Part shown: piece by piece, positions 4,673-61,230 of the stretch
Layout: the number at the start of each line of letters is the position of its first letter
How positions within the stretch are numbered: position 1 is the stretch's first letter
Source of the DNA: an uncultured Candidatus Saccharibacteria bacterium
GTDB taxonomy: Bacteria; Patescibacteriota; Doudnabacteria; UBA920
Reading direction: 5' to 3'
DNA: 64,000 bases
Assembly: GCA_964490395.1 (NCBI GenBank)
Contig: CAZBAS010000006.1
Coordinates: 8,081 to 72,080 of the forward strand
Notes under the pieces: generated by a model
What the model saw: only the letters and a program-made list of their open reading frames with translations
Told to the model about the DNA's origin: nothing
The model's database searches: none
Position numbers and translations under genes: made by a program

Positions 4673-4722
4673 AGAATCTAGAATTAAGAATTATGAATCA
4701 AGAATATAGTAGTAAGAATATG
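4673..4722. repeat. heptanucleotide tandem repeat (AGAATYA)x7 in a 5' leader
   Basis: agaatct agaattA agaattA tgaatca agaatat agtagta agaatat lies immediately 5' of the start of the oxidoreductase gene. Confidence 0.5.
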
Positions 4723-12156: not shown

Positions 12157-12822
12157 ATGGACGGAGCAAGTATGACCAAGCTGCGTTTTCTTGGCGGCAA
12201 GTATGGCCAGTCTTTGACCGCCTCCCTTTTAGGTGGTAAGTCAAAGTTTGGTAATGACAGCAATGGTGCTGACCTGTTTTGGTTTCCCACGACAGGCGAA
12301 AAAGTTGATGTTGAAATCAAGGTGTCACAATCCTATGGTTTCAAAATAGATGAAATCCAATTACTGCGATATGAGCGTAGACAGGTGTGTGGGGCTTGTG
12401 ATCATGTTCTGTACATGCTAGTAGAATATCATCCAGACCCTGTTATCCTACGAGAGCTGGAATTAACACAGCAGAATGTTTCGGCTTTTCTTTCACAGCG
12501 GGTCCATACTATATATTTATTAGACCTGGGTGCGGTGTTGGCCATGCGTGCCCTTGAGGGCAGTAAGAATGGCTATCATCCAGAGAAAAGAATGGTACGT
12601 ACAACGGCAACGTTTTTACGTTCCATCTTTGATTATTCTTCGGGTTTTTGCCAAAGAGGTGGTCTGAACCGTGATGAGTTTGTATCTCATAGCCTGGAGT
12701 TGGGCTCGCCTGGTTTGTGCGGGGAAAAATTGCCCCAGCTGAAGTCGCTGAGGTTTTTTCTGCCCGCTGCAGTGTCTAATGAGATTACAACCAACACATA
12801 TCACTATCTCATAAGCGAGTAG
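12157..12822 (+). CDS. hypothetical protein with a possible PD-(D/E)xK nuclease-like motif
   Basis: The ORF track begins at a TTG (12118). An ATG at 12157 lies 3 nt after GGGAGGAG. The segment GADLFWFPTTGEKVDVEIKV fits the D-x(n)-E-x-K restriction-endonuclease-fold pattern. This match is weak. Confidence 0.4.
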   Translation: MDGASMTKLRFLGGKYGQSLTASLLGGKSKFGNDSNGADLFWFPTTGEKVDVEIKVSQSYGFKIDEIQLLRYERRQVCGACDHVLYMLVEYHPDPVILRELELTQQNVSAFLSQRVHTIYLLDLGAVLAMRALEGSKNGYHPEKRMVRTTATFLRSIFDYSSGFCQRGGLNRDEFVSHSLELGSPGLCGEKLPQLKSLRFFLPAAVSNEITTNTYHYLISE

Positions 12823-12915: not shown

Positions 12916-13057
12916 GTTAAACAAGTTGGGTGCATTCGAATGATGCCATCCCTGGCGTTAGTCGATTACTCCTGACTTGAACTTAGTAATAGCACATACA
13001 TGATTGGCCTGTTTGCGCAGCCAGTCCTGTCTTTGCGTATGGAAAGGAATTACCAGC

Positions 13058-13618
13058 ATGGTAAAGAAACCAGAACCACAGTCCAAGTTCGAATTGGCTG
13101 CAGTAAAGTTTACTAATTGGGTTGGGTCTACGTCTTCGCTTGTCGTCCATACCTTAGCTTTTATAGCCAGTTTTATATTGGTTATATTTGGCGTGGCGTT
13201 AGATAAAGTACTCCTTGTACTTACGACCGCAGTGTCGCTGGAGGCAATTTATCTTGCTATATTCATTCAAATGACAGTGAACCGCAACACTGCAAGTTTG
13301 GAAGAAGTGGAAGAAGACATAGATGAAATCCAAAAAGACATTGATGAAGTCCAGGAAGACGTGGGCGAAATTGCCGAAGATGTAGGAGAAATTGAAAAAG
13401 ACGTTGATGAAATTCAGGCGGACATTGATGAAGTGCAAAAAGATATAGACGAAGTGCAAAAAGACGTTGACGAAATTCAAGAAGACGTAGAAGACATTAC
13501 AGAAGGCGAAACTGCAGAAGAGCTAGCCGACCGCAAAACTCGCGAGTCCTTAGATAACATAGAAGGCACCCTCGCAAGGCTCATAGAAGAAATAGAAAAA
13601 ATAAAAGCGCAGAAATAA
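13058..13618 (+). CDS. DUF1003 family membrane protein with C-terminal heptad-repeat coiled coil
   Basis: Has two TM helices and the SLEAIYLAIFIQMTVNRN motif characteristic of DUF1003/COG4420. The ATG at 13058 follows AAAGGA. The C-terminus is an acidic 7-residue repeat array. Confidence 0.7.
   Translation: MVKKPEPQSKFELAAVKFTNWVGSTSSLVVHTLAFIASFILVIFGVALDKVLLVLTTAVSLEAIYLAIFIQMTVNRNTASLEEVEEDIDEIQKDIDEVQEDVGEIAEDVGEIEKDVDEIQADIDEVQKDIDEVQKDVDEIQEDVEDITEGETAEELADRKTRESLDNIEGTLARLIEEIEKIKAQK
13301..13512 (+). repeat. about ten imperfect 21 bp tandem repeats inside the DUF1003 gene, encoding the heptads (D/G)E(I/V)(Q/E)(K/E)D(I/V)
   Basis: gatgaa(a/g)t(c/g)ca(a/g)aaagac(a/g)t(t/a) recurs head-to-tail. 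The protein repeat reads DIDEVQK / DVDEIQE. Confidence 0.7.
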
Positions 13619-15934: not shown

Positions 15935-16024
15935 ACTAATATACGAATGCCACGCGAATGTCACGAATAATACCGGAAGAATTTACTTAATTCGTAATTC
16001 TTGATTCTTAATTCTATTCTTACA
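15935..16024. repeat. heptanucleotide repeat tract (CGAATG/GAATTAA/GAATCAA units) in a 5' leader
   Basis: acgaatg-cacgcgaatg-tcacgaata ... cttaattcgtaattcttgattcttaattctattcttac. This is the same unit family seen at 4673, 52245, 61143 and inside metG. Confidence 0.45.
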
Positions 16025-18501: not shown

Positions 18502-20289
18502 ATGAAAACATTTAAACATATAAACAAAAAATACTTAGTGGTAAGCGCGCTTGTAATTGCAGGCGCGCTTTTGGTGTGGAGTTTTTATTGGGTTGGGGTG
18601 TTTTCCGGTTCCCCTCCTAAGGTAGGAGGGGCTAGGGGTGGTATGAAAGAAAATGCTACCGTAATCCATCCTGCCACGGTCATGCAACCGGATCTGTACC
18701 CAACTTTGAATAAAGTGGATGAGATCCCTGCTGCTACTGAGAAAGTCTACGGCGGTATAGTATCCCACCATTTCTACATGGAAGAGGATATAGGGAAGCT
18801 GTTTTTACAGTTACGCCAGCAGAATCCATCTGTGGTGGTAATAGTGGGTCCGAACCATTTTAATGCAGGCAATGCAGACATACAAACTTCTACTGCTTCG
18901 TATACTACTCCCTTTGGTCAGCTCGATGGCGATCTGCCGCTCGTTAGTCGCTTGGTCGCAGACGGCGCTGCAACTCATGAGGAGCTCGCTTTTGAGCGCG
19001 AACATTCCATAGGGGCACTTGTTGGTTTTACAAAGAAAGTATTTCCAAATGCTAAATTACTTCCCATTATCATGCGTCGCAACGCAAGTCCTGGCCGTAC
19101 GGAACAACTTGCAGCTGAGCTTGAAAAAATACTTCCCCAAGATGCGCTCGTCCTGGCGAGTGTAGATTTTTCGCATCACTTGGATAGGTTTGCAGCTGGC
19201 TTCCACGATAGCCAGTCAGTGGCTGCGTTGCTTTCTGCGGACTTCAACCGCATTCGCAGTCTAGAAGTAGATAGTCCGCAGAGTTTAGAAGTGCTTATGC
19301 GCTACCTGGAGAGCCGGGGAGCACTGCATATGGAATATAAAAATACGAACCAGGCAGTGTATGGCGGTAACTTGATGTCCGATGACGTAACCAGCTATGT
19401 GTTCGCGAAATTTACGTCTTCTTCCAGCCCTCCCCCTCAAGAGGGGTCTCCCTCCTCTTCCTCCCCTAATATAGGGCCCGCTACGCCGGAGCGTAAGCGA
19501 GGCGAGGAGGCTAGGAGGGGTATAATTTCGAACATCGTACCACCCCTAACCCCTCCTATCCTAGGAGGGGGAAAAGACACAGCCACCCTCCTACATCTTG
19601 GGATATTCAATGCAGGCATGCTTGAATCTAACGAAGGCAAGGCCCTCTACGCACTTGGTGGCCCAGAAAATAATTTCCTCCGCGGCGGAGATTTAAAAGT
19701 TATTGGTACGAATAATAAAACAAGTTGTAACTCAGCGCGCATTCCAGCACTTGAGCGCTATAAGATCAATGTATTCAACTCACAGTCATGCGCAAATACC
19801 TTTGTGTTTGGCTCAGAAAATAGAAATTATAATGTAGGTTTTATTTCTATAGCTCAAGGTGAAAACGTAAGCAAAGCAGTAGCTATCCAAAAAAAGAATT
19901 ACGCTTACGTGGCTGTTCAGGTTCCCGCTAGTGCCGAAGCCCAAAGTGCCATCGATTACGGCGCAGATGCAGTCTTTATTCAAGACGGTGCAGCAAAAGT
20001 TGAACTATACAAAAACAAACCCATCATTCATCACCCGGCATCAAATACATCAGGTTTCAGTACTGGCGTAGTATTTAATCCAGCAGGTGCATCAAATATC
20101 GCAGAAGCTTCCTCTGATTCCTCCCCTAAAATAGGGGAGGCTAGGTGGGGTATAAAACTGTACACCTTCCCATACCAACTAAAAAACAATCAACTCACCC
20201 GCCTCGATATTTCTGCAAGACTAAAATCCTGTAAACAAATTTTAACCGGACTAAAAAATGTAGATGGTTGCTCTGCAAGTATCCAGTAA
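18502..20289 (+). CDS. membrane-anchored MEMO1-family (AmmeMemoRadiSam protein B-like) domain fused to a C-terminal domain of uncertain (possibly CapA/metallophosphatase-like) affinity
   Basis: Shows the N-terminal TM helix and the Memo-like motifs VIVGPNHF, TPFG, EHSIGA and SVDFSHH. The C-terminal segment AIDYGADAVFIQDG...LYKNKPIIH is CapA-like. The ORF is interrupted in-frame by three GC-rich palindromic elements. Confidence 0.6.
   Translation: MKTFKHINKKYLVVSALVIAGALLVWSFYWVGVFSGSPPKVGGARGGMKENATVIHPATVMQPDLYPTLNKVDEIPAATEKVYGGIVSHHFYMEEDIGKLFLQLRQQNPSVVVIVGPNHFNAGNADIQTSTASYTTPFGQLDGDLPLVSRLVADGAATHEELAFEREHSIGALVGFTKKVFPNAKLLPIIMRRNASPGRTEQLAAELEKILPQDALVLASVDFSHHLDRFAAGFHDSQSVAALLSADFNRIRSLEVDSPQSLEVLMRYLESRGALHMEYKNTNQAVYGGNLMSDDVTSYVFAKFTSSSSPPPQEGSPSSSSPNIGPATPERKRGEEARRGIISNIVPPLTPPILGGGKDTATLLHLGIFNAGMLESNEGKALYALGGPENNFLRGGDLKVIGTNNKTSCNSARIPALERYKINVFNSQSCANTFVFGSENRNYNVGFISIAQGENVSKAVAIQKKNYAYVAVQVPASAEAQSAIDYGADAVFIQDGAAKVELYKNKPIIHHPASNTSGFSTGVVFNPAGASNIAEASSDSSPKIGEARWGIKLYTFPYQLKNNQLTRLDISARLKSCKQILTGLKNVDGCSASIQ
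18607..18645. repeat. GC-rich palindromic element, short version, in-frame in CDS (encodes SGSPPKVGGARGGM)
   Basis: ggttCCCCTCCtaaggtaGGAGGGGctaggggtggtatg. Confidence 0.7.
19425..19572. repeat. composite GC-rich palindromic element cluster in-frame in CDS (CCCCCTCAAGAGGGG hairpin, then the long-version element, then a CCCCTCCTA-tcc-TAGGAGGGG hairpin)
   Basis: ccctccccctcaagaggggtctccc ... cctcccctaatatagggcccgctacgccggagcgtaagcgaggcgaggaggctaggaggggtat ... cccctcctatcctaggagggg. It encodes SSSPPPQEGSPSSSSPNIGPATPERKRGEEARRGI...PPILGGG. Confidence 0.7.
20119..20155. repeat. GC-rich palindromic element, short version, in-frame in CDS (encodes SDSSPKIGEARWGI)
   Basis: tCCTCCCCTAaaaTAGGGGAGGctaggtggggtataaa. 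Confidence 0.7.
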
Positions 20290-20904: not shown

Positions 20905-21021
20905 CTTACATTTTATACTCATGGTGATCTCGGCAGGAGTTGAACCTGCGACCTTCAGCTCCGCAAGCTGACGCTCTATCCAGCTGAGCTACGAGACCAT
21001 GCCATGAGTATAAAATGTAAT
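20905..21021. repeat. 19 bp perfect inverted repeats (TTACATTTTATACTCATGG / CCATGAGTATAAAATGTAA) bracketing tRNA-Arg(GCG)
   Basis: The left arm abuts the tRNA 3' CCA and the right arm lies 2 nt beyond the tRNA 5' end. In the precursor transcript they would form a 19 bp stem enclosing the tRNA. Confidence 0.6.
20922..20998 (-). tRNA. tRNA-Arg (anticodon GCG as read; D-arm identical to bacterial tRNA-Arg(ACG))
   Basis: The reverse complement is GGTCTCGTAGCTCAGCTGGATAGAGCGTCAGCTTGCGGAGCTGAAGGTCGCAGGTTCAACTCCTGCCGAGATCACCA. The anticodon stem is TCAGC/GCTGA with loop UUGCGGA, and CCA is encoded. Confidence 0.8.
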
Positions 21022-21031
21022 TTTGCAAATA

Positions 21032-21129
21032 GCAGGAGTTGAACCTGCGACCTGTCCGGTGCCGCATCGGACCGCTCTATCCAGCTGCCTCTCCGCCACA
21101 GCGTTAGCGACGACAGAAGCTACGAGACC
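21032..21129 (-). pseudogene. tRNA-Arg-like remnant (degenerate partial duplication of the adjacent tRNA-Arg)
   Basis: It shares the 5' leader and the GGTCTCGTAGCT start plus the T-arm GGTCGCAGGTTCAACTCCTGC with tRNA-Arg(GCG). It carries an insertion of about 30 nt in the D-loop, has a 9 nt anticodon loop, and lacks the 3' acceptor strand and CCA. Confidence 0.4.
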
Positions 21130-21377
21130 ATGCCATAGGTATGGAATATATGCGGGAAAAACACTAAAGCTAAACTAGTCTACCATGTTTACCAGGTTTT
21201 ATCAAGGTCGCGTGTGTGGTATTATAGTAGTACATATATTCTTTATAGACGGTTGTGTCGCCCCGACAGTGTATGGGGTCTAGAGTTGCCGCGTTGTTTG
21301 AACTCTGGTTTCTCGAGCTTTGAGAAAAGATCACATGACTTGCCTTCTACCAAGGCAATTTTTAGTGAGACACACCT

Positions 21378-26633: not shown

Positions 26634-27210
26634 ACAAATACGTGACGAGGTCTGGGATTTGAAACAGTCTCCACTCTATACCTACCGCACAGAGAACAAA
26701 TATTACCCTGTGCTCGGAGAGGGTGGCCATACTGCGCGCGTAGTGTTTGTGGGCGAGGCTCCTGGAGAAAATGAAGCAAAAACCGGAAGACCATTTGCGG
26801 GCGCTGCGGGGAAAGTGTTGGATCAGCTACTGGCATCCATTAACTTAAAACGAGAAGATGTATACATTGCCAACTTGGTTAAGGATAGGCCTCCGGGGAA
26901 TCGAGACCCACAGCCTGAAGAGATAGAGCTGTATGGTCCGTTTCTTATAAGGCAACTTGAAGCAATACAACCAAAGGTAGTTGCTACGCTTGGACGGCAT
27001 TCGCTCCAGTATTTGTTGCAGTACTTTGGCGCACCCGAGTTTGGGCAAACCATAACAAAGCTTCATGGTAGGGTAATACCGGTAAAAGCATCCTACGGGC
27101 CTCTGACTCTTGTCCCGCTGTATCACCCTGCGGCTGCGCTTTACAACCCCAACCTTCGCGCAGTACAACTCGAAGATATAAAAGTTTTGTCTGGTATACT
27201 AAAGGGGTAA
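26608..27210 (+). CDS. uracil-DNA glycosylase, family 4
   Basis: Has the GEAPGENE motif, GRPFAGAAGKVL, and the HPAA(A)LYNP C-terminal motif typical of family 4 UDG. The start is set at MATTEEQ. Confidence 0.75.
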   Translation: MATTEEQLKQIRDEVWDLKQSPLYTYRTENKYYPVLGEGGHTARVVFVGEAPGENEAKTGRPFAGAAGKVLDQLLASINLKREDVYIANLVKDRPPGNRDPQPEEIELYGPFLIRQLEAIQPKVVATLGRHSLQYLLQYFGAPEFGQTITKLHGRVIPVKASYGPLTLVPLYHPAAALYNPNLRAVQLEDIKVLSGILKG

Positions 27211-27312
27211 TGACAAAAATGAACAAAAGTAAATAAAAATGACAGAAATATAAAACACAACTCTGAACAATTTTTGTCACTTTTGTCATTTTTTTAAATT
27301 TTGTCACTAAAC
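27211..27312. repeat. about 100 bp intergenic repeat element, copy 1 (termini AATGACAAAAATGA ... TCATTTTTGTCA; three TTTTGTCA direct repeats)
   Basis: The 5' end (22 nt) and the 3' end (37 nt, tttttgtcacttttgtcatttttttaaattttgtca) are near-identical to the copy at 59122..59228. It lies between UDG and dedA. Confidence 0.6.
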
Positions 27313-27961: not shown

Positions 27962-29470
27962 ATGGTTCATCCTTCACGCGTAAGAAAATTGAACACAGCT
28001 GAAAGTGGTACGGAAGGTCCGGTTGTATATTGGATGAGCCGAGACCAGCGCGTGGCTCACAATGCAGCGCTGGCTTACGCAGCACAACTCGCCCGCGAAT
28101 ATAATCAGCCACTCATGGTGGTTTTTTGCCTACGCAAAAAATTTGCCCACGGAACAGAGCGCCTTATAGATTTCATGCTCACAGGCCTAGAGGAAGTGGA
28201 AGCAGACCTCGTAAAGAAAGATATCCCATTTTACTTTTTGCTCGGAAGGCCGGAAATAGAAATTCCAAAATTTATACACGAGCATAGTGTTTCTGCTTTG
28301 GTTTCAGATTTTTCTCCGCTGAAGACTAATCGTCAGTGGAAAGAGCATGTATCCGAAAGAATCAAAATTCCATTGTATGAAGTGGACGCCCACAATATAG
28401 TGCCGTGCTGGGCTGCAAGTCCTAAGCAAGAATTTGGCGCATATACCATTCGCCCAAAAATACATAGGCTCCTTTCTGAATATCTGCAAGATTTTCCAAG
28501 ATGGAATTATACCCCACCTAACCTCCCCTATATTAGGGGAGGAAAGAATGCCGATAGTGGATCCATTGATGCAGACGCCTCCTCCGGTACCCCTCCTAAG
28601 ATAGGACCCGCTACGCTGGAGCATAAGCGAGGCGAGGGAGCTAGGGGTGGTATGGATTGGAGCCACATTCGATCCCAAATAGAAGTAGATACTTCTGTGC
28701 CAAAAGTGGACTGGATTGTGCCAGGGGAAAAAGCAGCACATAAAATGGTAAAACATTTTATTGCCCATAAATTAAAAACCTATAACGAAAATAGAAACGA
28801 CCCCACTAAGGATGTTCAGTCCAATCTTTCTCCCTATCTTCATTTCGGCCACATATCGAGCGAGCAAGTAGTCTTAGAGGTTCTCAATGCCACAGGCCTC
28901 AGTCTTGCCGAAGTGCTAGAAAAACATACTGCAAGCACAGAGCCACTTAAGCTATCGGCCACATCGTTTATTGAAGAGCTTGTAGTGCGCAAAGAACTTT
29001 CCGATAATTTTTGTTTCTACAATAAATTTTACGATTCAACAAAGGGGTTTCCTGCGTGGGCGCTAAAAACTCTGAATGAACATCGCGGTGATGTGAGAGA
29101 ATACACATATACGCTCAAGCAGTTAGAAGAGGCGAGCACGCACGATGACCTATGGAATGCTGCGCAATTGGAAATGGTTAAGCGGGGTAAAATGCACGGC
29201 TACATGCGCATGTACTGGGCCAAGAAAATATTTGAATGGAGCAAAACACCAGAGAAGGCCGTAGAGCATGCTATATACTTGAACGACAAATATTTTTTGG
29301 ACGGACGTGATCCAAACGGTTATACAGGCATAGCCTGGTCCGTTGGTGGCGTGCACGACCGCGCGTGGTTTGAGCGGTCTATATTTGGTAAAATTCGCTA
29401 CATGTCTTACGGCGGCGCGAAAAGTAAATTTAAAATTGCTGAATATATACAAAAGATCAATGCACTATAG
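27962..29470 (+). CDS. phr: deoxyribodipyrimidine photolyase, class II CPD photolyase
   Basis: The N-terminus VVYWMSRDQRVAHNAAL and the C-terminus GYTGIAWSVGGVHDRAWFERSIFGKIRYMSYGG are class II photolyase signatures. It contains an in-frame insertion of GC-rich palindromic elements. Confidence 0.85.
   Translation: MVHPSRVRKLNTAESGTEGPVVYWMSRDQRVAHNAALAYAAQLAREYNQPLMVVFCLRKKFAHGTERLIDFMLTGLEEVEADLVKKDIPFYFLLGRPEIEIPKFIHEHSVSALVSDFSPLKTNRQWKEHVSERIKIPLYEVDAHNIVPCWAASPKQEFGAYTIRPKIHRLLSEYLQDFPRWNYTPPNLPYIRGGKNADSGSIDADASSGTPPKIGPATLEHKRGEGARGGMDWSHIRSQIEVDTSVPKVDWIVPGEKAAHKMVKHFIAHKLKTYNENRNDPTKDVQSNLSPYLHFGHISSEQVVLEVLNATGLSLAEVLEKHTASTEPLKLSATSFIEELVVRKELSDNFCFYNKFYDSTKGFPAWALKTLNEHRGDVREYTYTLKQLEEASTHDDLWNAAQLEMVKRGKMHGYMRMYWAKKIFEWSKTPEKAVEHAIYLNDKYFLDGRDPNGYTGIAWSVGGVHDRAWFERSIFGKIRYMSYGGAKSKFKIAEYIQKINAL
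28521..28655. repeat. GC-rich palindromic elements in-frame in the photolyase gene (CCTCCCCTA-tat-TAGGGGAGG hairpin plus the long-version element)
   Basis: acCTCCCCTAtatTAGGGGAGGaaag ... ccCCTCCtaagataGGAcccgctacgctggagcataagcgaggcgagggagctaggggtggtatg. It encodes ...SGTPPKIGPATLEHKRGEGARGGM. Confidence 0.7.
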
Positions 29471-36462: not shown

Positions 36463-36774
36463 CCAATTTTTTCATTTTGACTACTCAGGCAACTAGGGTG
36501 TATCTTTAATTTACTACTATCCCCCATATATGCTGCAAGATATAAACTTTACTCCAATATTTGAATATATTGATGCAAAGAATGATGAACTGCTTGAAAA
36601 AATGCAGGGTATTTTTGCCACCAAAGAAGATGTAAGGTGTATTAATGATAGGCTTGCACAGATCAGTTTTTTTATATAATCTATAAGTAGCTATGAAGGC
36701 GGTGGCGCGCTGGAGCTGAATTGAATAAAGATGGTCCCGCTAAGCGGGACAAATAGGGTGGAACCGCGGGTGAA

Positions 36775-36822
36775 GACTCGTCCCTAGATATAAGTAATTA
36801 TATTTAGAGACGAGTTTTTTGT
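36775..36822 (+). terminator. intrinsic terminator (ACTCGTC ... GACGAGT stem with a 26 nt loop, followed by T6)
   Basis: gACTCGTCcctagatataagtaattatatttagaGACGAGTtttttgtatttt. It would terminate a short upstream transcript (a 49 aa ORF or an ncRNA). Confidence 0.5.
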
Positions 36823-36831
36823 ATTTTCTTG

Positions 36832-36923
36832 TCCCCCTCCTAAGATAGGAGGGGCTAGGGGTGGTATGAGTCATTCGTAATAAATTTCGTACCCCATCTG
36901 ACTTCCCCTATCTTAGGGGAAGG
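36832..36923. repeat. intergenic copies of the GC-rich palindromic element (a complete short version plus an inverted partial copy)
   Basis: tCCCCCTCCtaagataGGAGGGGctaggggtggtatg (near-identical to the in-gene copy at 18607) and cTTCCCCTAtctTAGGGGAAgg. Neither lies in a coding region. Confidence 0.7.
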
Positions 36924-36963
36924 ACAGGACAAACATATGTGCTATTAATAATCGTATATATCT

Positions 36964-44045: not shown

Positions 44046-45524
44046 ATGTCTAAACCATTTTACATTACGACTACACTTCCATATGTAAACGCGAAACCCC
44101 ACATGGGTCACGCGCTGGAGTTTGTGTATGCCGATATTTTAGCTCGGTATCATAAGCTGTTGGGCGATGAAATATACTTCAACACTGGTACTGACGAACA
44201 TGGTTTGAAGATATATCAGAAGGCTATTGAAGAAGGTAAGGGGCCCCAAGCTTACGTAGATGAGTACGCAGCAAAGTTTAAGTCTCTACTGCCTCGTTTG
44301 GGAGTATCCGACGATATACATTTTATACGAACAACAGATGCCAATCATAAATCTGCTGCGCAAGAGTTTTGGAAGCGGTGCTTGGCGAATGATGATATAT
44401 ATAAAAAGATATATAAAGTTAAATACTGCGTTGGGTGTGAGCTAGAAAAAACAGATTCAGACCTTGTTGATGGATTCTGCCCATTGCACCCCGGAAAAGA
44501 GTTAGAGCTCATAGAAGAAGAAAACTATTTCTTTAAATTTTCGAAGTATCAGCAACCCTTGCTCGATTTGTACGATACAGCGAACCATGACTTTGTGGTG
44601 CCAAAAACACGTCTGCATGAGATACGCGAATTCGTATCAGCAGGTCTTAAAGACTTTAGCATATCGAGGCTCGCAACTAAGATGCCTTGGGGAATACCGG
44701 TGCCTGGCGACGAATCACAAGTCATGTATGTGTGGTTTGATGCACTCATTAATTACATTTCTACATTGGGCTGGCCAAGTACTTCCGAGCAGTTTGAAAA
44801 ATTTTGGGGAACAATTGATGCGCCAAACGGAATACAAATTGCAGGTAAAGACAACCTCCGCCAGCAGTCCGCAATGTGGCAGGCAATGCTTATGAGCGCG
44901 GGTCTTCCAAACTCTAAACAAATCTTAATCCACGGGTTCATCACGAGCGGCGGCCAGAAGATGTCTAAGAGTATTGGAAACGTCGTAGATCCATTTGATG
45001 TAATAGATAAGTTAATAGAAAAAGGTGTGGCAGAAGCTCAGGCAATTGACGCGCTTAGGTATTGGTTTGCGCGTGAGATGCCGACCTTTGAAGACGGTGA
45101 TTTTACTTGGGAACGTTTCGTAGAAAACTATACTGCTAATCTTGCAAATGGTTTGGGGAATTTGACGAGCCGTATTTTAAAAATGGCGGTGAATGCAGGA
45201 ATTACGAATTACGAATTACGAATTACGAATTTCAATTCTGAGTATGGAACCTGTCTAAACCAGTATGAAATACAGAAAGTAACAGACTGGGTGTGGGAAA
45301 AAATTAAAGCCGCAGATGAGTTCATAGCTAAAGAAGAACCATTCAAGAAAGTTAAAGTTGACCTTGAGGCAGGCAAGAAAGATATACAGTATTTACTTGG
45401 CCAGCTGGAGCTTGTTGCATATCACACGCAGCCATTGTTACCAGACTCATCACAAAAAATATTGGCAGCGTTACAAAACATAACTCTTGAAACTATTCCA
45501 CGGCTGTTTCCAAGGATTGCATAA
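44046..45524 (+). CDS. metG: methionine--tRNA ligase (short form)
   Basis: Has the HIGH-type motif PHMGHAL, the KMSKS motif, and a Cys knuckle CVGCELEKTDSDLVDGFCPLH. An in-frame heptamer-repeat insertion lies in the anticodon-binding region. Confidence 0.8.
   Translation: MSKPFYITTTLPYVNAKPHMGHALEFVYADILARYHKLLGDEIYFNTGTDEHGLKIYQKAIEEGKGPQAYVDEYAAKFKSLLPRLGVSDDIHFIRTTDANHKSAAQEFWKRCLANDDIYKKIYKVKYCVGCELEKTDSDLVDGFCPLHPGKELELIEEENYFFKFSKYQQPLLDLYDTANHDFVVPKTRLHEIREFVSAGLKDFSISRLATKMPWGIPVPGDESQVMYVWFDALINYISTLGWPSTSEQFEKFWGTIDAPNGIQIAGKDNLRQQSAMWQAMLMSAGLPNSKQILIHGFITSGGQKMSKSIGNVVDPFDVIDKLIEKGVAEAQAIDALRYWFAREMPTFEDGDFTWERFVENYTANLANGLGNLTSRILKMAVNAGITNYELRITNFNSEYGTCLNQYEIQKVTDWVWEKIKAADEFIAKEEPFKKVKVDLEAGKKDIQYLLGQLELVAYHTQPLLPDSSQKILAALQNITLETIPRLFPRIA
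45198..45239 (+). repeat. six tandem heptanucleotide units (CGAATTA)x6 = 42 nt, in-frame inside metG
   Basis: ggaatta cgaatta cgaatta cgaatta cgaattt caattct. It encodes GITNYELRITNFNS. This is the same unit family as the intergenic tracts. Confidence 0.7.
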
Positions 45525-46267: not shown

Positions 46268-47282
46268 TACTCACGCACATATAAACTTACACGCATTTAA
46301 AGATGATGCAGATGAAGTGTTGCAGCGGTGTTTTGCCGCGGGTGTGACTGTTATAAATGTGGGCACAGAATACAATACGAGCAAACAGGCGGTGGATATG
46401 CTCAAGGAATATCCGCTGCGTGTATATGCAGCCATAGGTCTCCACCCTAGTCATACGTACGATAATCCGTATTTAGATGAGAATGAAAGCGCGTCGCGAA
46501 GTGGGCAGGAACAGTTCAATTACGACGCTTATAAAAAACTGGGAGCGCATGAAAAGGTTATTGGAATAGGTGAGTGTGGGTTGGATTATTATAGATTGCC
46601 AGATGATGCGTCTACTCATGAATCTATTAAGGCGTTGCAAAAAGAAGCTTTTCTGAAGCAGATTAAGCTAGCGCTGGAACTAGACAAGACTCTTATTATC
46701 CATTGTCGCCCAAGCAAAGGTACCAACGACGCTTATGAGGATGTCCTTGCTATAATTTCCAATTTCCCCGTTCGGCAGGCTCAGGGCCCTGAACTTCTTG
46801 AAGGGCAATTTCCAGTTTCCAATGAAGGAAGTTTTCTTTCCGGCACCCCTCCTCTGGAGGAGGGGCAGGGGGAGGTCATAGTGAAGAATGACGATGCATC
46901 AAAAGTTTCTATGACCCCCACTAACTCCCCCTCAAGAGGGGGAGGACAAGAACTTCGTTTCGAAGTTCATTCGTTTACGGGACCACTCGAAATAGCACAG
47001 AAGTTTCTTGCTCTCGGCGCTTACATTGGTTTAAACGGGATAATCACTTTCGATAAAACCGGGAACATGGAGCAAGTAGTAAAAGGTGTGCCGCTGGAAC
47101 GAATAGTGCTTGAGACAGATTCGCCGTACCTAGCGCCTATCCCATATCGTGGTAAGCGCAACGAGCCTGCATATATAGAGCAAGTGGCAAAGAAAATTGC
47201 TGAGTGGAAAAGCGTGGCTTGTGAAGACGTGGCCGCTACTACAACAGAAAACGCAAAACAATTATTTAAACTACCTTTATGA
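46257..47282 (+). CDS. tatD: TatD-family metal-dependent deoxyribonuclease/hydrolase with an in-frame insertion of about 45 aa
   Basis: Has LIDTHAHI, GECGLDY and the HCR motif of the TatD family. It is 341 aa against about 255 aa typical. The excess corresponds to a GC-rich palindromic element cluster. Confidence 0.85.
   Translation: MLIDTHAHINLHAFKDDADEVLQRCFAAGVTVINVGTEYNTSKQAVDMLKEYPLRVYAAIGLHPSHTYDNPYLDENESASRSGQEQFNYDAYKKLGAHEKVIGIGECGLDYYRLPDDASTHESIKALQKEAFLKQIKLALELDKTLIIHCRPSKGTNDAYEDVLAIISNFPVRQAQGPELLEGQFPVSNEGSFLSGTPPLEEGQGEVIVKNDDASKVSMTPTNSPSRGGGQELRFEVHSFTGPLEIAQKFLALGAYIGLNGIITFDKTGNMEQVVKGVPLERIVLETDSPYLAPIPYRGKRNEPAYIEQVAKKIAEWKSVACEDVAATTTENAKQLFKLPL
46840..46950. repeat. 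composite GC-rich palindromic insertion in tatD (CCCCTCCTC-tg-GAGGAGGGG; GGTCATAG...CTATGACC; CTCCCCCTC-aa-GAGGGGGAG)
   Basis: Three perfect hairpins lie within 110 nt. They encode GTPPLEEGQGEVIVKNDDASKVSMTPTNSPSRGGGQE. Confidence 0.7.
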
Positions 47283-52009: not shown

Positions 52010-52244
52010 AGATTTACCTCCTATGGTGTTTTATGGATCATTGATGTGGCAACATAAATGATCGGTCCTAAGGCGTGGGTGGCTCATTGCTGTAGGAAGG
52101 TATATATAAATCCTGTTCATGCAGGCCTGGTGTTGCTATTAAAATGACGTACTTAGCCTATGATGTCAAATGAATAAGAAACAGGGAAACCTGTTATACT
52201 TAAATAACAGATGTTTTCTTGCAAGTCGATTGCGCTGAGTTGCA

Positions 52245-52275
52245 TGATTCGTAATTCTTCATTCTTGATTCTGTC
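52245..52275. repeat. heptanucleotide repeat tract (TGATTCG TAATTCT TCATTCT TGATTCT) in a 5' leader
   Basis: Lies immediately upstream of the ATG at 52281. Unit family GAATYAM (shown here as its reverse complement). Confidence 0.45.
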
Positions 52276-52280
52276 TTTTC

Positions 52281-53429
52281 ATGACTTTAAAACTCCGACT
52301 CCCACACTATTTTCTGTTTCACCTCAATGCTGAGGTAAAAGAACTCTATGTCGCTGCTGGTATTGCCGATGTTGCTTTGTCGGCGATGCTCGTGTTCGAA
52401 CCTATATATTTGTATCAGGCTATTGGGCTGACAGTGCCGATGGTGCTCATTTTTTTTGCTGCTGTGTATGCGTGGTATGCACTGCTTATTCCTTTTGGTG
52501 GAAAATTTACCGCTGCATTTGGCTATAAACGGGCCATGGCACTGAGCATATTTTTTCAGCTTGGGTATTGGGCGTGTTTGTTTTTTGCGGCAGGACACCC
52601 TGCGCTCTTGTGGCTTGCCCCGCTACTCTATGCCATAGAAAAATCTTTATATTGGCCCGCATTTCATGGTATAGTGGCACGGTTTGCAAATCAGGGGCAG
52701 GTAGGGAGAGAGTTCAGTATGCTTACCGCCATTATTCAAGCCGCGCAAATAATTGGCCCACTTCTCGGTGGCATCTTGGCACAGGTGAGCGGTAGTCAGA
52801 ATTTACTTGTGGCAGCGGGGGCAATATATGTAGTGGCTCTTATTCCTTTGCTTATTCATAAAGAGCGTTATCAAGAGAAACCATATTCATTCCGGGACAC
52901 CTGGAATTTGTATGGCACACAAATGAAAAAAAGCATTGGGTATTGGGGATTTGGCGAAGAACTGTTGGCGCTCACTGTTTGGCCTATTTTCATTTTCATT
53001 GTTCTTACTGGCTACCAGGAAGCGGGTATAGTTATAACCATTGCCTCCGCACTTTCCGCCGGTATTTCGTTGTACCTTGGAAAGCTTACCGATGGAGCAG
53101 CTAAAATGCCCATGCTTAAGCTTGGAGCGGTAGCAACTGCTCTTGGCTGGTTTGTGCGTCCACTGTTGCCAGGCGCCGGCGGAAGCCTCGCCGCAGATAC
53201 CACTGCCAGGGTAGGGAAAAATGTCTATTTTATTCCGCTTTCTACCGTAACGTATGAACGGGCAGAAGCAACGGATATAATTCCTTACATAGTATTTTTT
53301 GAGCAAAGCTTGGCCTTTGGCAAGCTCCTCACGGCTCTTGCGGCCGCGCTCTTATTTGCCGTAACAGGCAGTTTTCCGCTATTGTTTGTATTAGCAGGGC
53401 TCATGAGCCTTTTATACATTCTTCTATAA
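52281..53429 (+). CDS. MFS-type transporter (putative)
   Basis: Has about 10-12 TM helices, and GxLaD-like and MFS-like loops. The N-terminal boundary is uncertain. Confidence 0.5.
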   Translation: MTLKLRLPHYFLFHLNAEVKELYVAAGIADVALSAMLVFEPIYLYQAIGLTVPMVLIFFAAVYAWYALLIPFGGKFTAAFGYKRAMALSIFFQLGYWACLFFAAGHPALLWLAPLLYAIEKSLYWPAFHGIVARFANQGQVGREFSMLTAIIQAAQIIGPLLGGILAQVSGSQNLLVAAGAIYVVALIPLLIHKERYQEKPYSFRDTWNLYGTQMKKSIGYWGFGEELLALTVWPIFIFIVLTGYQEAGIVITIASALSAGISLYLGKLTDGAAKMPMLKLGAVATALGWFVRPLLPGAGGSLAADTTARVGKNVYFIPLSTVTYERAEATDIIPYIVFFEQSLAFGKLLTALAAALLFAVTGSFPLLFVLAGLMSLLYILL

Positions 53430-58387: not shown

Positions 58388-59125
58388 ATGGAACCAACCA
58401 AATTAGTATATTTAGAAGACATGCATACGCTGACTGGCGATGCAGGTGTGGTAGAAGTAGGGGAGATGGAAGGCAGGCAGTACATAGTGCTTGACCAAAC
58501 TATTTTGTATGCGCAAGGGGGTGGCCAGCCTGCAGACCATGGGGTTATAAAAAATGATGCTTCAGTTTTCATGGTAACGGATGTACGTTTCAAGGATGGT
58601 ATTGTCTATCACTATGGCGAACGGGAGGGTGCTCCATTATCCGTTGGTGATAAAGTAGTTATAGAAGTGGATGGCGAGCGAAGGCAGTTGCACAGGCGGT
58701 TGCATTCTGCTGCGCACGTGCTAGACATGGTAGTGGCAGAAATGAATCTACCCTGGGTACCTGGTAAAGGGTATCATTTTCCCGATGGTCCCTATGTAGA
58801 ATACGCCGGGTCGCTGGACGGCTTGAACATAGAAGAGCTAAAAGAAAAAATGGAGAAAAGAATACATGAGATAATTGCTTCGGATCTTCCGACGCGTACT
58901 GTGTTTGTGAGTAAAGATGAAATGGCACAGCTCTGCAGATTTGTACCAGAACACTTGCCCGAGGGGAAACCAACACGCGTAGTTCTGTATGGCCAGTTTG
59001 GTGTGCCGTGCGGGGGTACGCATGTGGCGCATTTAAGCGAAATAGGCTCTGAAGCTATACGTAAGATAAAAGTGGAAAAAGGCAACGTTAGAGTAAGCTA
59101 TACTATAGATACCAATGCTCAATGA
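58388..59125 (+). CDS. AlaX-type alanyl-tRNA editing protein (tRNA synthetase second additional domain)
   Basis: Has the HxxxH motif (HSAAHVL) and CGGTHV zinc-binding motifs of AlaX/ThrRS editing domains. Confidence 0.7.
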   Translation: MEPTKLVYLEDMHTLTGDAGVVEVGEMEGRQYIVLDQTILYAQGGGQPADHGVIKNDASVFMVTDVRFKDGIVYHYGEREGAPLSVGDKVVIEVDGERRQLHRRLHSAAHVLDMVVAEMNLPWVPGKGYHFPDGPYVEYAGSLDGLNIEELKEKMEKRIHEIIASDLPTRTVFVSKDEMAQLCRFVPEHLPEGKPTRVVLYGQFGVPCGGTHVAHLSEIGSEAIRKIKVEKGNVRVSYTIDTNAQ

Positions 59126-59228
59126 CAAAAATGAGCAAAATTGAACAAAGGTGAAAAAATTAAAATATATTCGGTTTTCATTTTTGTCACTTTTGTCATT
59201 TTTTTAAATTTTGTCAATCTAAAATAAA
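59122..59228. repeat. about 100 bp intergenic repeat element, copy 2 (the same termini and TTTTGTCA triple repeat as 27211..27312)
   Basis: aatgacaaaaatgagcaaaa ... tcatttttgtcacttttgtcatttttttaaattttgtca. It sits between the AlaX-like gene and the next gene. Confidence 0.6.
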
Positions 59229-60050: not shown

Positions 60051-61147
60051 TGGTAGCGACAGGAGCCAAACGCATGCAGATACAACCAGAAGACTACAAT
60101 TTTGAGTTTCCCGACTCTCTTATTGCCCAAAGCCCTGCGCATCCTCGTGATAGTGCGCGGCTTTTGGTTTACGACAGAAAAACCAGCACAGTTGCATTGG
60201 ATATATTTAAAAATCTGGTACAGTACCTACCTCCCCGCGCAGTTATTGTATTTAATGAAACCAAAGTTATTCCGGCGCGTTTCTATGCGTATAAGCCCAC
60301 TGGCGGTAAGGTGGAGTTGCTATATACAGGTAAATCGGAAAAAACTTTTGACGCCCTTGCAAATAGATCGCTAGTAGTCGGTGATGTACTTTGTTTTCGA
60401 TCCGGTTCCTCCCCTAAGATAGGGGAGGCTAGGAGGGGCATGAACCAAGAGCACGATATTACCGTTACGAAAAAACTATCCAAAGGATACCGTTTTACAT
60501 CGTCATTCCCCATTTCTCAGTTATTCTCTATTCTCGACAGGCACGGTGTTACACCTATACCGCCGTACATAAAAAATAATACATTTGCGGAAAAGAAACT
60601 TCGCACAGAGTATCAGACTGTGTTTGCGAAGTCGCAAGGCTCAAGCGCAGCACCAACTGCGAGTCTACACTTTACGAAAAACCTTCTGGCGAAATTTGAG
60701 AAAGCGGGAATAGCTACCGAGTATGTAACATTGCATGTGGGGCTCGGCACCTTCGCACCGCTCACGGAGAAACATCTGAAAACCAAAAAACTTCATAGCG
60801 AGTACTATGAAATTACGCCATCTGTTGCAAAGCGGCTGGAGCGCTATAAAAAACAGGGCAGGCCAATAGTTGCTGTGGGGACGACCGTGGTCCGTACACT
60901 CGAGTCCGCTGCTTCGCGTGCGGGAAAGCTTGGTAAGCTTTCCGGAAAAACTGAAATATTTATTTACCCGCCGTATAATTTTAAATTTGTAGACAGCCTC
61001 ATTACCAACTTTCATGTACCCAAGTCCAGCCTTATGATGCTGGTAGCAAGTTTAATTGGTCGTGAAAAGCTGCTTGAGTTGTACGTCTTGGCGGTAAAAA
61101 AGAAGTTTAGGCTGTTTTCGTTTGGTGATGGCATGCTCATAAGATAG
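60050..61147 (+). CDS. queA: S-adenosylmethionine:tRNA ribosyltransferase-isomerase
   Basis: Has QSPAHPRDSARLLVYDRKT at the N-terminus and conserved QueA motifs throughout. One GC-rich palindromic element is inserted in-frame. Confidence 0.85.
   Translation: MVATGAKRMQIQPEDYNFEFPDSLIAQSPAHPRDSARLLVYDRKTSTVALDIFKNLVQYLPPRAVIVFNETKVIPARFYAYKPTGGKVELLYTGKSEKTFDALANRSLVVGDVLCFRSGSSPKIGEARRGMNQEHDITVTKKLSKGYRFTSSFPISQLFSILDRHGVTPIPPYIKNNTFAEKKLRTEYQTVFAKSQGSSAAPTASLHFTKNLLAKFEKAGIATEYVTLHVGLGTFAPLTEKHLKTKKLHSEYYEITPSVAKRLERYKKQGRPIVAVGTTVVRTLESAASRAGKLGKLSGKTEIFIYPPYNFKFVDSLITNFHVPKSSLMMLVASLIGREKLLELYVLAVKKKFRLFSFGDGMLIR
60407..60443. repeat. GC-rich palindromic element, short version, in-frame in queA (encodes SSPKIGEARRGM)
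   Basis: tCCTCCCCTAagaTAGGGGAGGctaggaggggcatg. Confidence 0.7.
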
Positions 61148-61178
61148 GATCAAGAATTAAGAATCACGAATTGGGTAC
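61143..61178. repeat. heptanucleotide repeat tract (GGATCAA GAATTAA GAATCAC GAATTGG) followed by a degenerate GC-rich palindrome
   Basis: Lies directly after the queA stop. It is followed by gggtacccccgggttCCCCTCCCCaggcGGGGGGAGagg (61178..61225). Confidence 0.45.
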
Positions 61179-61230
61179 CCCCGGGTTCCCCTCCCCAGGC
61201 GGGGGGAGAGGCCAGGAGAGAGGTTGAATC

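Follow-up and report, generated by a model that had tools for sequence, protein, structure and literature searches.

Repeats that follow an intrastrand-triplex rule lie in frame within genes of a candidate-phyla-radiation bacterium

The stretch of DNA analysed here, referred to as the window, is 64,000 nucleotides of contig CAZBAS010000006.1 from an uncultured bacterium deposited as Candidatus Saccharibacteria. It carries a family of short repeats, each made up of a hairpin and a G-rich tail. Nine complete copies, two long copies with a 31-nt internal module, one partial copy and one doubtful degenerate copy were recovered by repeat finding, pattern search and a hidden Markov model (HMM) built from the copies (nhmmer); these are listed in Table 1. 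Nine of the 12 clear copies, and seven of the nine perfect ones, are in frame inside the genes for a Memo-like protein, a photolyase, TatD and QueA. The open reading frames (ORFs) of all four host genes are unbroken, and their products match the Pfam families Memo, DNA_photolyase (class II photolyase), TatD_DNase and Queuosine_synth. The database entry for the window QueA starts at another start codon.

An earlier note on this DNA, made from the letters alone, had named the same four host genes and had placed a repeat at sites that correspond to 28505-28653, 18611, 19420-19580, 20120, 36823-36933, 46834-46953 and 60408. The repeat is real at each of these positions. The three copies counted in the Memo-like gene are four and a fragment, and the genome, which had been taken for AT-rich, has a G+C content of about 45% all along the window. 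The degenerate copy that had been listed at 61178-61225 can be seen by eye, and was recovered neither by nhmmer (E>10) nor by the triplex finder described below. The closest named homologues of the window proteins are from metagenome-assembled genomes (MAGs) of Candidatus Doudnabacteria, Levybacteria and the "Patescibacteria group", and the host is therefore a bacterium of the candidate phyla radiation (CPR). A cyanobacterial origin, considered in view of the HIP1, STRR and SDR repeats, was rejected on the same homologues and on the complete absence of GCGATCGC sites from the window.

Table 1. Copies of the repeat in the window, with strand, structural parts, support and predicted peptide.
Coordinates	Strand	Feature and location	Parts or stem type	Support	Predicted peptide
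18598..18650	+	Complete single copy, Memo-like gene, right after N-terminal hydrophobic segment	Y strand CCCCTCC(TA), loop AGG, R strand (TA)GGAGGGG, loop2 CTA, third strand GGGGTGG+T; 9-bp hairpin at -9.0 kcal/mol	Perfect triads; HMM E 4.7e-14	GSPPKVGGARGGM
19420..19446	+	Partial copy or hairpin remnant, Memo-like gene	CCCTCCCCCTCAAGAGGGG	Weak, E 0.33; mainly by eye	
19454..19528	+	Long copy, Memo-like gene	CCTCCCC type; purine arm split by 31-nt module 19477-19507		SSSPNIGPATPERKRGEEARRGI
19534..19580	-	Complete copy, Memo-like gene, inverted partner of 19454..19528		Triplex finder; HMM E 2.7e-12	VPPLTPPILGGGK
20109..20158	+	Complete single copy, Memo-like gene near 3' end	CCTCCCC / GGGGAGG / GGTGGGG	Triplex finder; E 1.2e-13	SSPKIGEARWGI
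28505..28547	-	Complete copy, photolyase interdomain linker	CCTCCCC / GGGGAGG / GGTGGGG	Triplex finder; E 6e-12	YTPPNLPYIRGGK
28582..28653	+	Long copy, photolyase linker	31-nt module 28607-28637		SSGTPPKIGPATLEHKRGEGARGGM
36823..36872	+	Complete copy, left half of intergenic inverted pair, between glyS T-box terminator and glyS start codon		E 8e-15	
36885..36933	-	Complete copy, right half of glyS-leader pair	Other stem type, CTTCCCC / GGGGAAG / GATGGGG	E 1.8e-12	
46834..46953	+	Composite pair in TatD			SGTPPLEEGQGEVIVKNDDASKVSMTPTNSPSRGGGQ
46834-46882	+	TatD pair, forward half; conserved spacer follows	CCCCTCC / GGAGGGG / GGGGAGG		
46907-46953	-	TatD pair, reverse half	CTCCCCC / GGGGGAG / GTGGGGG	Triplex finder; HMM	
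60396..60445	+	Complete single copy in QueA	CCTCCCC / GGGGAGG / GGAGGGG	E 1.6e-13	SGSSPKIGEARRGM
61178..61225	+	Doubtful degenerate copy, spacer between queA and DUF3048 gene		Pattern with 2 mismatches; by eye	

The unit consists of TT, CCYCYCC-TA, NNN, TA-GGRGRGG, YTA, GGNGNGG and T, in this order. The hairpin has a stem of 9 bp and a 3-nt loop of variable sequence (CCYCYCCTA-NNN-TAGGRGRGG). The G-rich tail, for example GGGGTGG, mirrors the hairpin's purine arm, from which a second loop (loop2) separates it. This third strand is the defining feature of the repeat, which the earlier note had described as a simple palindrome with a stem of 7–9 bp. The order of pyrimidine arm, loop, purine arm, loop and third strand is kept in all nine complete window copies and in a set of 224 oriented copies, which consists of the window copies and those at the loci among the listed matches of the genome scan described below. 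All four inverted pairs in the window unite different stem or loop types.

Six variants of the stem were found and all obey the mirror rule. The purine arm GGAGGGG is followed by the third strand GGGG[T/A]GG, GGGGAGG by GG[T/A]GGGG, GGAGAGG by GG[T/A]GAGG, GGAGGAG by GAGGAGG, GGGGGAG by GTGGGGG, and GGGGAAG by GATGGGG. In each case G faces G, A faces T or A, and a conserved T on the 3' side of the third strand faces the A of the closing TA pair. As read from the aligned copies, this is exactly the pairing rule of a putative class II purine-motif (reverse-Hoogsteen, antiparallel) intrastrand triplex.

A class II intrastrand triplex finder, requiring perfect Watson-Crick arms of at least 7 nt, loops of 3–9 and 1–6 nt and perfect triads, returned nine perfect motifs of at least 7 triads from the window. 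These are the nine complete copies and nothing besides. The same finder returned no motifs from 100 first-order Markov simulations of the window, and the hairpin pattern has four matches in the window against 0.06 expected. A chance origin is therefore excluded. Across the many phyla of the larger set, 186 of the 208 copies with an asymmetric purine arm follow the mirror rule and 2 follow a direct-repeat rule. The T after the third strand is present in 206 of the 224 copies. Among these, loop2 reads TTA 119 times and CTA 36 times, with CCG, CTG and GCAG found in partner copies (loci L042, L043 and L065). Most exceptions to the mirror rule are register errors in Prevotellaceae, where the 3-nt loop2 has been swapped for a small G+C hairpin (e.g. 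TGCCGACAGGC) and the correct GGGGTGG then follows. What is conserved across copies, stem variants and phyla is the rule of a fold. The tracking of the purine arm by the third strand through six variants is comparative evidence for a triplex, or at least a mirror constraint, in vivo. ViennaRNA models the 9-bp hairpin only and leaves the third strand free.

The window repeats are most probably dispersed non-autonomous DNA repeats of the intrastrand-triplex kind, as are the Escherichia coli elements known as BoxC, potential intrastrand triplex (PIT) elements or TMECO. The purine arm and tail together (GG-A-GGGG-CTA-GGGG-T-GG) also supply at least four G-runs, which could instead reflect selection for a two-tetrad G-quadruplex (G4) competing with the hairpin in DNA or RNA. 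Every variant does keep at least four GG runs, and the tail's non-G positions are taken by A, T or C, with pairing never needed. A G4 does not require mirror register, yet the ratio of mirror to direct copies is 186 to 2, and the T that faces the A of the closing pair would be left unexplained. The related TMECO oligonucleotide gave circular dichroism (CD) and NMR results that pointed to a triplex (PMC4666352). A G4 switch is accordingly held to be quite improbable.

Within ORFs of at least 300 amino acids the G-rich strand is read as coding in 22 cases and lies opposite the coding strand in 20, with no orientation bias. One orientation reads SPPK[IL]GG[AV]RGG and the other reads TPPNLGGE or PPLTPPILGGG. 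Because there is no orientation bias and the same DNA gives unrelated peptides, an mRNA motif and a selected peptide are both disfavoured. The former would be a structured RNA or cis-regulatory motif, such as a hairpin sequestering a Shine-Dalgarno-like GGAGG on the host mRNAs. The hairpin is indeed CCUCC/GGAGG-like and one pair is downstream of the T-box terminator in the glyS leader. Against this, most window copies are deep in coding sequence. Rfam reports only tRNAs in the window at gathering score, and only generic miRNA-like hairpins for the intergenic pair in E-value mode. RNA is stated not to form purine-motif triplexes and, in the same paper's account of the PIT elements, promoter or terminator activity was not seen (PMC4666352). 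A role as an RNA motif is very improbable.

A selected peptide module, S-P-P-K-I/L-G-G/E-A/V-R-G-G, recruited repeatedly and with the DNA symmetry as a by-product, is more improbable still. Closely similar peptides do occur in CPR and Prevotellaceae proteins, and could be read in this way; the Prevotellaceae SPPKLGGVRGGLN is, however, always accompanied by the DNA motif. The opposite orientation, with its two reverse frames, encodes unrelated peptides, and some copies are intergenic. The region of the photolyase insert is unstructured in its predicted model (pLDDT <50), which is a poor model overall. The pattern in the DNA is the reverse of the synonymous drift that a selected peptide would need. 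The intergenic copies and the use of both orientations uphold the earlier proposal that the repeat is a selfish or structural DNA element, tolerated in frame, and not a selected peptide.

The repeat leaves one open frame in the forward orientation and two in the reverse, since TAA and TAG occur in the remaining frames of the loop region. The intact host ORFs are therefore the remainder expected after a filter on random insertions.

Comparison with orthologues indicates that the intragenic copies are insertions. The QueA insert, SGSSPKIGEARRGM, is shared by the window and relatives of no less than 73% identity (P0001-P0004); in P0005 it has decayed, and P0006-P0015 lack it. Two of these relatives, P0004 (locus L116) and P0003 (L117), have an additional insert directly upstream of it. 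In L116 this is the same composite as in the window TatD, a forward copy, the spacer TCATAGTGAAGAA.GA.GATG.ATCAAAAG and a reverse copy; its stem types differ from those in TatD and the mirror rule is still kept. Between the window and L117, all 21 stem bases at the QueA site are identical, with only the loops and the trailing base differing, in genes of 76.5% DNA identity. By our own arithmetic, 0.765^21, the probability of this by chance is about 0.004. The three strands are constrained, or else homogenised from other copies.

The window photolyase is longer by 37 residues than the 73% identical P0122 and P0123, with all of the additional residues in the interdomain linker, where they are accounted for by the copies at 28505-28547 and 28582-28653 and the spacer between them. 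The DNA of this region is 100% identical in three independent assemblies (L121-L123), which excludes an assembly artefact. In the AlphaFold model, residues 176-229 are without secondary structure and have a pLDDT below 50; the model is mediocre, with a mean pLDDT of 64 from a 10-sequence alignment and further segments below 50, and it weakly supports a disordered loop.

The TatD composite is present in P0250, P0251 and P0253, and absent from the closer P0255 and P0256. In the window TatD, residues 160-231 take the place of approximately ten residues of the solved structure 2gzx. A search of 1.84 billion representatives with the 42-aa insert peptide, a query that is too short and of low complexity, gave one convincing extra host, P0246, in which the composite is also found; the remaining matches were unrelated repetitive proteins. 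Approximately 49 kb of DNA from a relative (L119, L120 and L124), largely syntenic with the window, contains no motifs. As judged from these alignments, in which orthologues of 73–83% identity lack them, the inserts are lineage-specific and in variable or linker regions, in line with the suggestion of the earlier note. The repeats are dispersed and multi-copy, are present in some relatives and absent from others, use one composite in different genes and are tolerated in frame.

Other repeat families are found in frame in TatD. In an alignment (A4) of the CPR homologues P0252, P0253, P0254, P0258, P0266 and P0278, these are located at two hot spots. Their peptides, ..DSRLHGNDK.. and ..VIP....AGMT, look like a translated palindrome of the GGGAATGAC type, and the same DNA (CCCGTCTGCACGGGAATGACAG) is intergenic in L124, at about 12380-12420. 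The settling of palindromic repeats in frame may be a general trait of CPR genomes.

The intergenic inverted pair is 5' of glyS, where a T-box leader is found at 36623-36822 (RF00230, 49.4 bits, E 4.9e-10, below the gathering score, which is 93); a terminator hairpin and a T-run go with it. The triplex pair separates this terminator from the glyS ATG. In the relative L124 the leader is approximately 91% conserved, but the sequence past the terminator is entirely different.

The pattern used to scan 185,579 species genomes left two diagnostic third-strand positions free, and at least 115 stretches matched. Copies are thus abundant beyond the window. The CPR hosts among the matches listed are Saccharibacteria, Komeilibacteria, Kerfeldbacteria, Peribacteria, Doudnabacteria and Jacksonbacteria. 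The others include Prevotellaceae, Muribaculaceae, Spirosomataceae/Emticicia, Geobacter and other Desulfuromonadales, Nitrospirota and Marithrix. A search of 2.9 million viral contigs with the core pattern gave no matches. The core is common to these phyla, whereas the flanks are lineage-specific and differ between phyla. In one Saccharibacteria MAG, two unlike cores are inside an element of approximately 150 nt that is marked by terminal inverted repeats (TAGGACTTACGC...GCGTAAGTCCTA) and set in unrelated flanks.

About 29% of the 224 copies are inside open frames of at least 120 aa. The Prevotellaceae hosts of in-frame copies are a GH2 glycosidase, a GH31 glycosidase and a TPP enzyme that matches TPP_enzyme_N and looks MenD-like, and there are two in-frame copies in a Saccharibacteria PolA. 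Some Prevotellaceae copies within ORFs have a loop2 of 2 nt instead of 3 nt, which is consistent with adjustment of the frame. Prevotellaceae proteins of the mobile-element type contain three to five in-frame copies each, often clustered (L037 1086-3701, L095 3-1403(-) and L096 1882-4408(-)); of L095 and L037, which were scanned against Pfam, the former matched the BT4734-like N-terminal domain and the latter gave no match. Insertions may build up beside copies already there, or where tolerance is very high.

The 31-nt module of the two long copies, CCCGCTACGCTGGAGCATAAGCGAGGCGAGG, is at the same position of the purine arm in both, within motifs of different stem types. Predicted folding has the module as an extra hairpin branching off the stem. 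The triplex potential of these two copies is compromised because their purine arm is interrupted. Elsewhere in the metagenome collection the module has an exact match at one locus only, on a Hainich groundwater contig (L126, 1040-1140, intergenic). Here it is in loop2 of a different triplex-rule motif, CCCTTCTCTCC...GGAGGAAGGG-CTGG-module-GGGATGGAGG, and the module therefore appears to be tied to motifs of this kind.

If the repeats are of the intrastrand-triplex kind, the element when single-stranded would fold into the 9-bp hairpin, and its third strand would lie back in the major groove to form G*G.C, T*A.T and A*A.T triads. The structure would matter at times when the DNA is single-stranded, as in a replication, repair or copying intermediate. 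Copies would spread as DNA, probably by a process that acts on single-stranded DNA. In a gene-dense genome most insertions would land in genes, and the survivors would be those with the one open frame (forward) or one of the two (reverse), a total length divisible by three and a location in a tolerant linker or loop. These would yield G/P/S/R-rich peptides of 12 to about 40 residues.

A different account of the spread is that the repeats are ordinary palindromic MITEs (transposable elements of the miniature inverted-repeat type) or elements like the repetitive extragenic palindromes (REPs) and their paired form, REPIN, whose hairpin is read by a RAYT or IS200-type Y1 transposase, with the G-rich tail serving as a recognition sequence only. 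The inverted pairs with short spacers look like REPINs or bacterial interspersed mosaic elements (BIMEs), the element in the Saccharibacteria MAG has terminal inverted repeats and unrelated flanks, and Y1 transposases work on single-stranded hairpins. The common core and the differing flanks between phyla are the opposite of what defines a MITE by its terminal inverted repeats, and a recognition sequence is not expected to change in mirror register with the stem in six variants. Neither end of the copies has the GTAG or CGTC tag of REPs: in the alignment of the nine window copies a pyrimidine-rich TTYCYKSDTT precedes the repeat on the 5' side, and TATGA, TACGA or TCAT follows on the 3' side. 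No transposase was found associated with E. coli BoxC (PMC4666352). A transposase-read hairpin is therefore unlikely, while retaining some weight.

Several observations weigh against the intrastrand-triplex interpretation itself. The CCYCYCC variant has 7–8 triads where TMECO has 9. The long copies, including the one at the site flagged in the earlier note (28582-28653), have an interrupted purine arm, with a fold z-score of -0.59. No evidence of a stable triplex was obtained in duplex DNA or by in vivo footprinting of TMECO (PMC4666352). Conservation of the QueA stem could derive in part from gene conversion between copies. No target-site duplication or exact insertion boundary was found at the window copies in the QueA, photolyase linker and glyS leader alignments; the L116 QueA pair fixes the boundaries to within a few bases only, and the photolyase linker and glyS leader are too diverged or replaced in the relative to define one. 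The only alignable conserved flank, that of the glyS leader, shows a replacement and not a clean filled and empty pair. No mobilising enzyme turned up in the 64-kb window, the ORFs of which had no systematic transposase screen. The inserts are presumably translated into peptides, as judged from the intact ORFs only.

A wider proposal, made tentatively and thought somewhat less probable than even, is that the triplex repeats are a family defined by fold and not by sequence, spread over distant phyla. Such a family would settle in frame in essential and metabolic genes of Patescibacteria and Prevotellaceae, with the fold constrained even within coding sequence, so that DNA structure dictates protein sequence. 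If true, this implies machinery that acts on single-stranded DNA to copy or maintain the elements, and a general and so far unrecognised source of loop insertions in the proteins of CPR genomes. For 25 years neither a function nor a way of spreading has been assigned to intrastrand triplex repeats, which were regarded as strictly intergenic and as essentially a feature of Proteobacteria or Cyanobacteria. Very distant phyla share a variant of this fold. Its residence in genes, like that of the Rickettsia palindromic elements (RPEs), provides natural experiments on the sites at which proteins tolerate insertions, and may help to account for certain insertions in CPR proteins that lack an explanation. 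In annotation, the G/P/S/R-rich stretches of these enzymes should be seen as derived from repeats rather than as functional motifs.

Some further features of the window were observed. A tRNA-like sequence at 21029-21145(-) has 5' and 3' parts as in the neighbouring tRNA-Arg(gcg) at 20922-20998, with approximately 30 extra bases in the D-loop region. It was called by neither ARAGORN nor Rfam, and could be an interrupted tRNA gene or a pseudogene. An identical AT-rich sequence of 37 nt, ATTTTTGTCACTTTTGTCATTTTTTTAAATTTTGTCA, is at two intergenic sites (27209-27306 and 59121-59216), each preceded by a related inverted block, AATGACAAAAATGA..., and constitutes a second, unrelated repeat or regulatory motif on TGACA/TGTCA. 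Runs of GAATTA[AC]-type heptamers are located at gene ends (4673-4719, 45198-45223 and 61146-61171, with the complement at 15983-16024 and 52240-52281). The run at 45198-45223 is four tandem GAATTAC, and one of the runs has the queA stop codon directly on one side and the degenerate triplex copy on the other. A coding tandem repeat at 13299-13529, in the ORF 13004-13618, has a 21-nt period and at least 9 units, encoding an acidic, heptad-like E/D-rich peptide.

Searches of the literature by sequence strings, and for CPR together with palindromic elements, returned nothing relevant. The kind of repeat is known. Holder et al. (NAR 2015, PMC4666352) described "intrastrand triplex motifs", of which TMECO is the older E. 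coli BoxC repeat and the same as the PIT elements of Hoyne & Maher, with earlier work by Bachellier et al., both as cited there. TMECO has the pattern CCCTCNCCC-N3-6-GGGNGAGGG-N3-GGGNGAGGG, a class II purine motif, with a loop2 of TTA (type A) or CCG (type B); inverted pairs are frequent and always join a type A to a type B. There are 23 copies in E. coli K-12, all intergenic, and the copy number varies strongly between close relatives. CD and NMR showed a stable triplex in the isolated strand (all PMC4666352). The repeats described here share with BoxC/PIT/TMECO the order of the parts, the triad rule and the loop2 sequences (TTA, with CCG/CTG in partners). They are likewise dispersed and multi-copy, form unlike inverted pairs and differ in presence between close relatives.

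They differ from TMECO in having a CCYCYCC stem with a TA closing pair (7–8 triads), not CCCTCNCCC (9), and in the nested 31-nt module of some copies. Their hosts are Patescibacteria, Bacteroidota, Desulfuromonadales/Geobacter-type bacteria, Nitrospirota and others, whereas those of TMECO are Proteobacteria. In E. coli, TMECO copies are reported to be intergenic in every case, a description contradicted by the in-frame residence of seven of the nine perfect window copies. No window copy matches the literal TMECO pattern with its 9-nt stems, and the window copies are therefore a variant, not strict TMECO. The locus L074, in another CPR genome, alone does match. Its exact copy, CCCTCTCCCTTTCAGGGAGAGGGTTAGGGTGAGGG, adjoins a copy of the CCTCCCC type and is approximately 91% identical over 43 nt to E. 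coli chromosomal sequences, at a median of 19 places per genome; an example is ACCCTCTCCCTTGAGGGAGAGGGTTAGGGTGAGGGGG in the nrdG-nrdD spacer.

REP, BIME and REPIN elements with RAYT transposases are G+C-rich hairpins of 20–40 nt in many copies, often as inverted doublets (PMC3733652). The window repeats resemble them in these respects; they are not extragenic, however, and their core is common across phyla, in contrast to the species-specific REPs. Small intragenic repeats such as ERIC/RU-1 to RU-3, RUP, Correia/NEMIS and the Coxiella QMITE (PMC2759123, PMC10969869) similarly keep an open frame and are fused into host ORFs. Those are, however, MITEs of 100–170 bp set by terminal inverted repeats, and none is set by a triplex fold.

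The RPEs are palindromes of approximately 100–150 bp known from Rickettsia only (Ogata et al. 2000, as summarised in PMC10969869). The analogy with them drawn in the earlier note is a fair one as regards behaviour: the window repeats are likewise in frame in unrelated housekeeping genes of a small, gene-dense genome, in tolerant regions, and have intergenic copies as well. The unit of 36–50 nt (about 110 nt for pairs), the mirror third strand and the CPR host are differences from RPEs. On this comparison the resemblance would be one of behaviour and not of membership, and by description the repeats are set apart from RPEs. The earlier note had also considered the family to be undescribed. This does not stand for the kind, which is that of BoxC, PIT and TMECO (PMC4666352), and holds for what is new here: the CCYCYCC-TA stem variant, the phyla that carry it (Patescibacteria, Bacteroidota, Desulfuromonadales/Geobacter-type, Nitrospirota and others) and its frequent residence in frame within genes.

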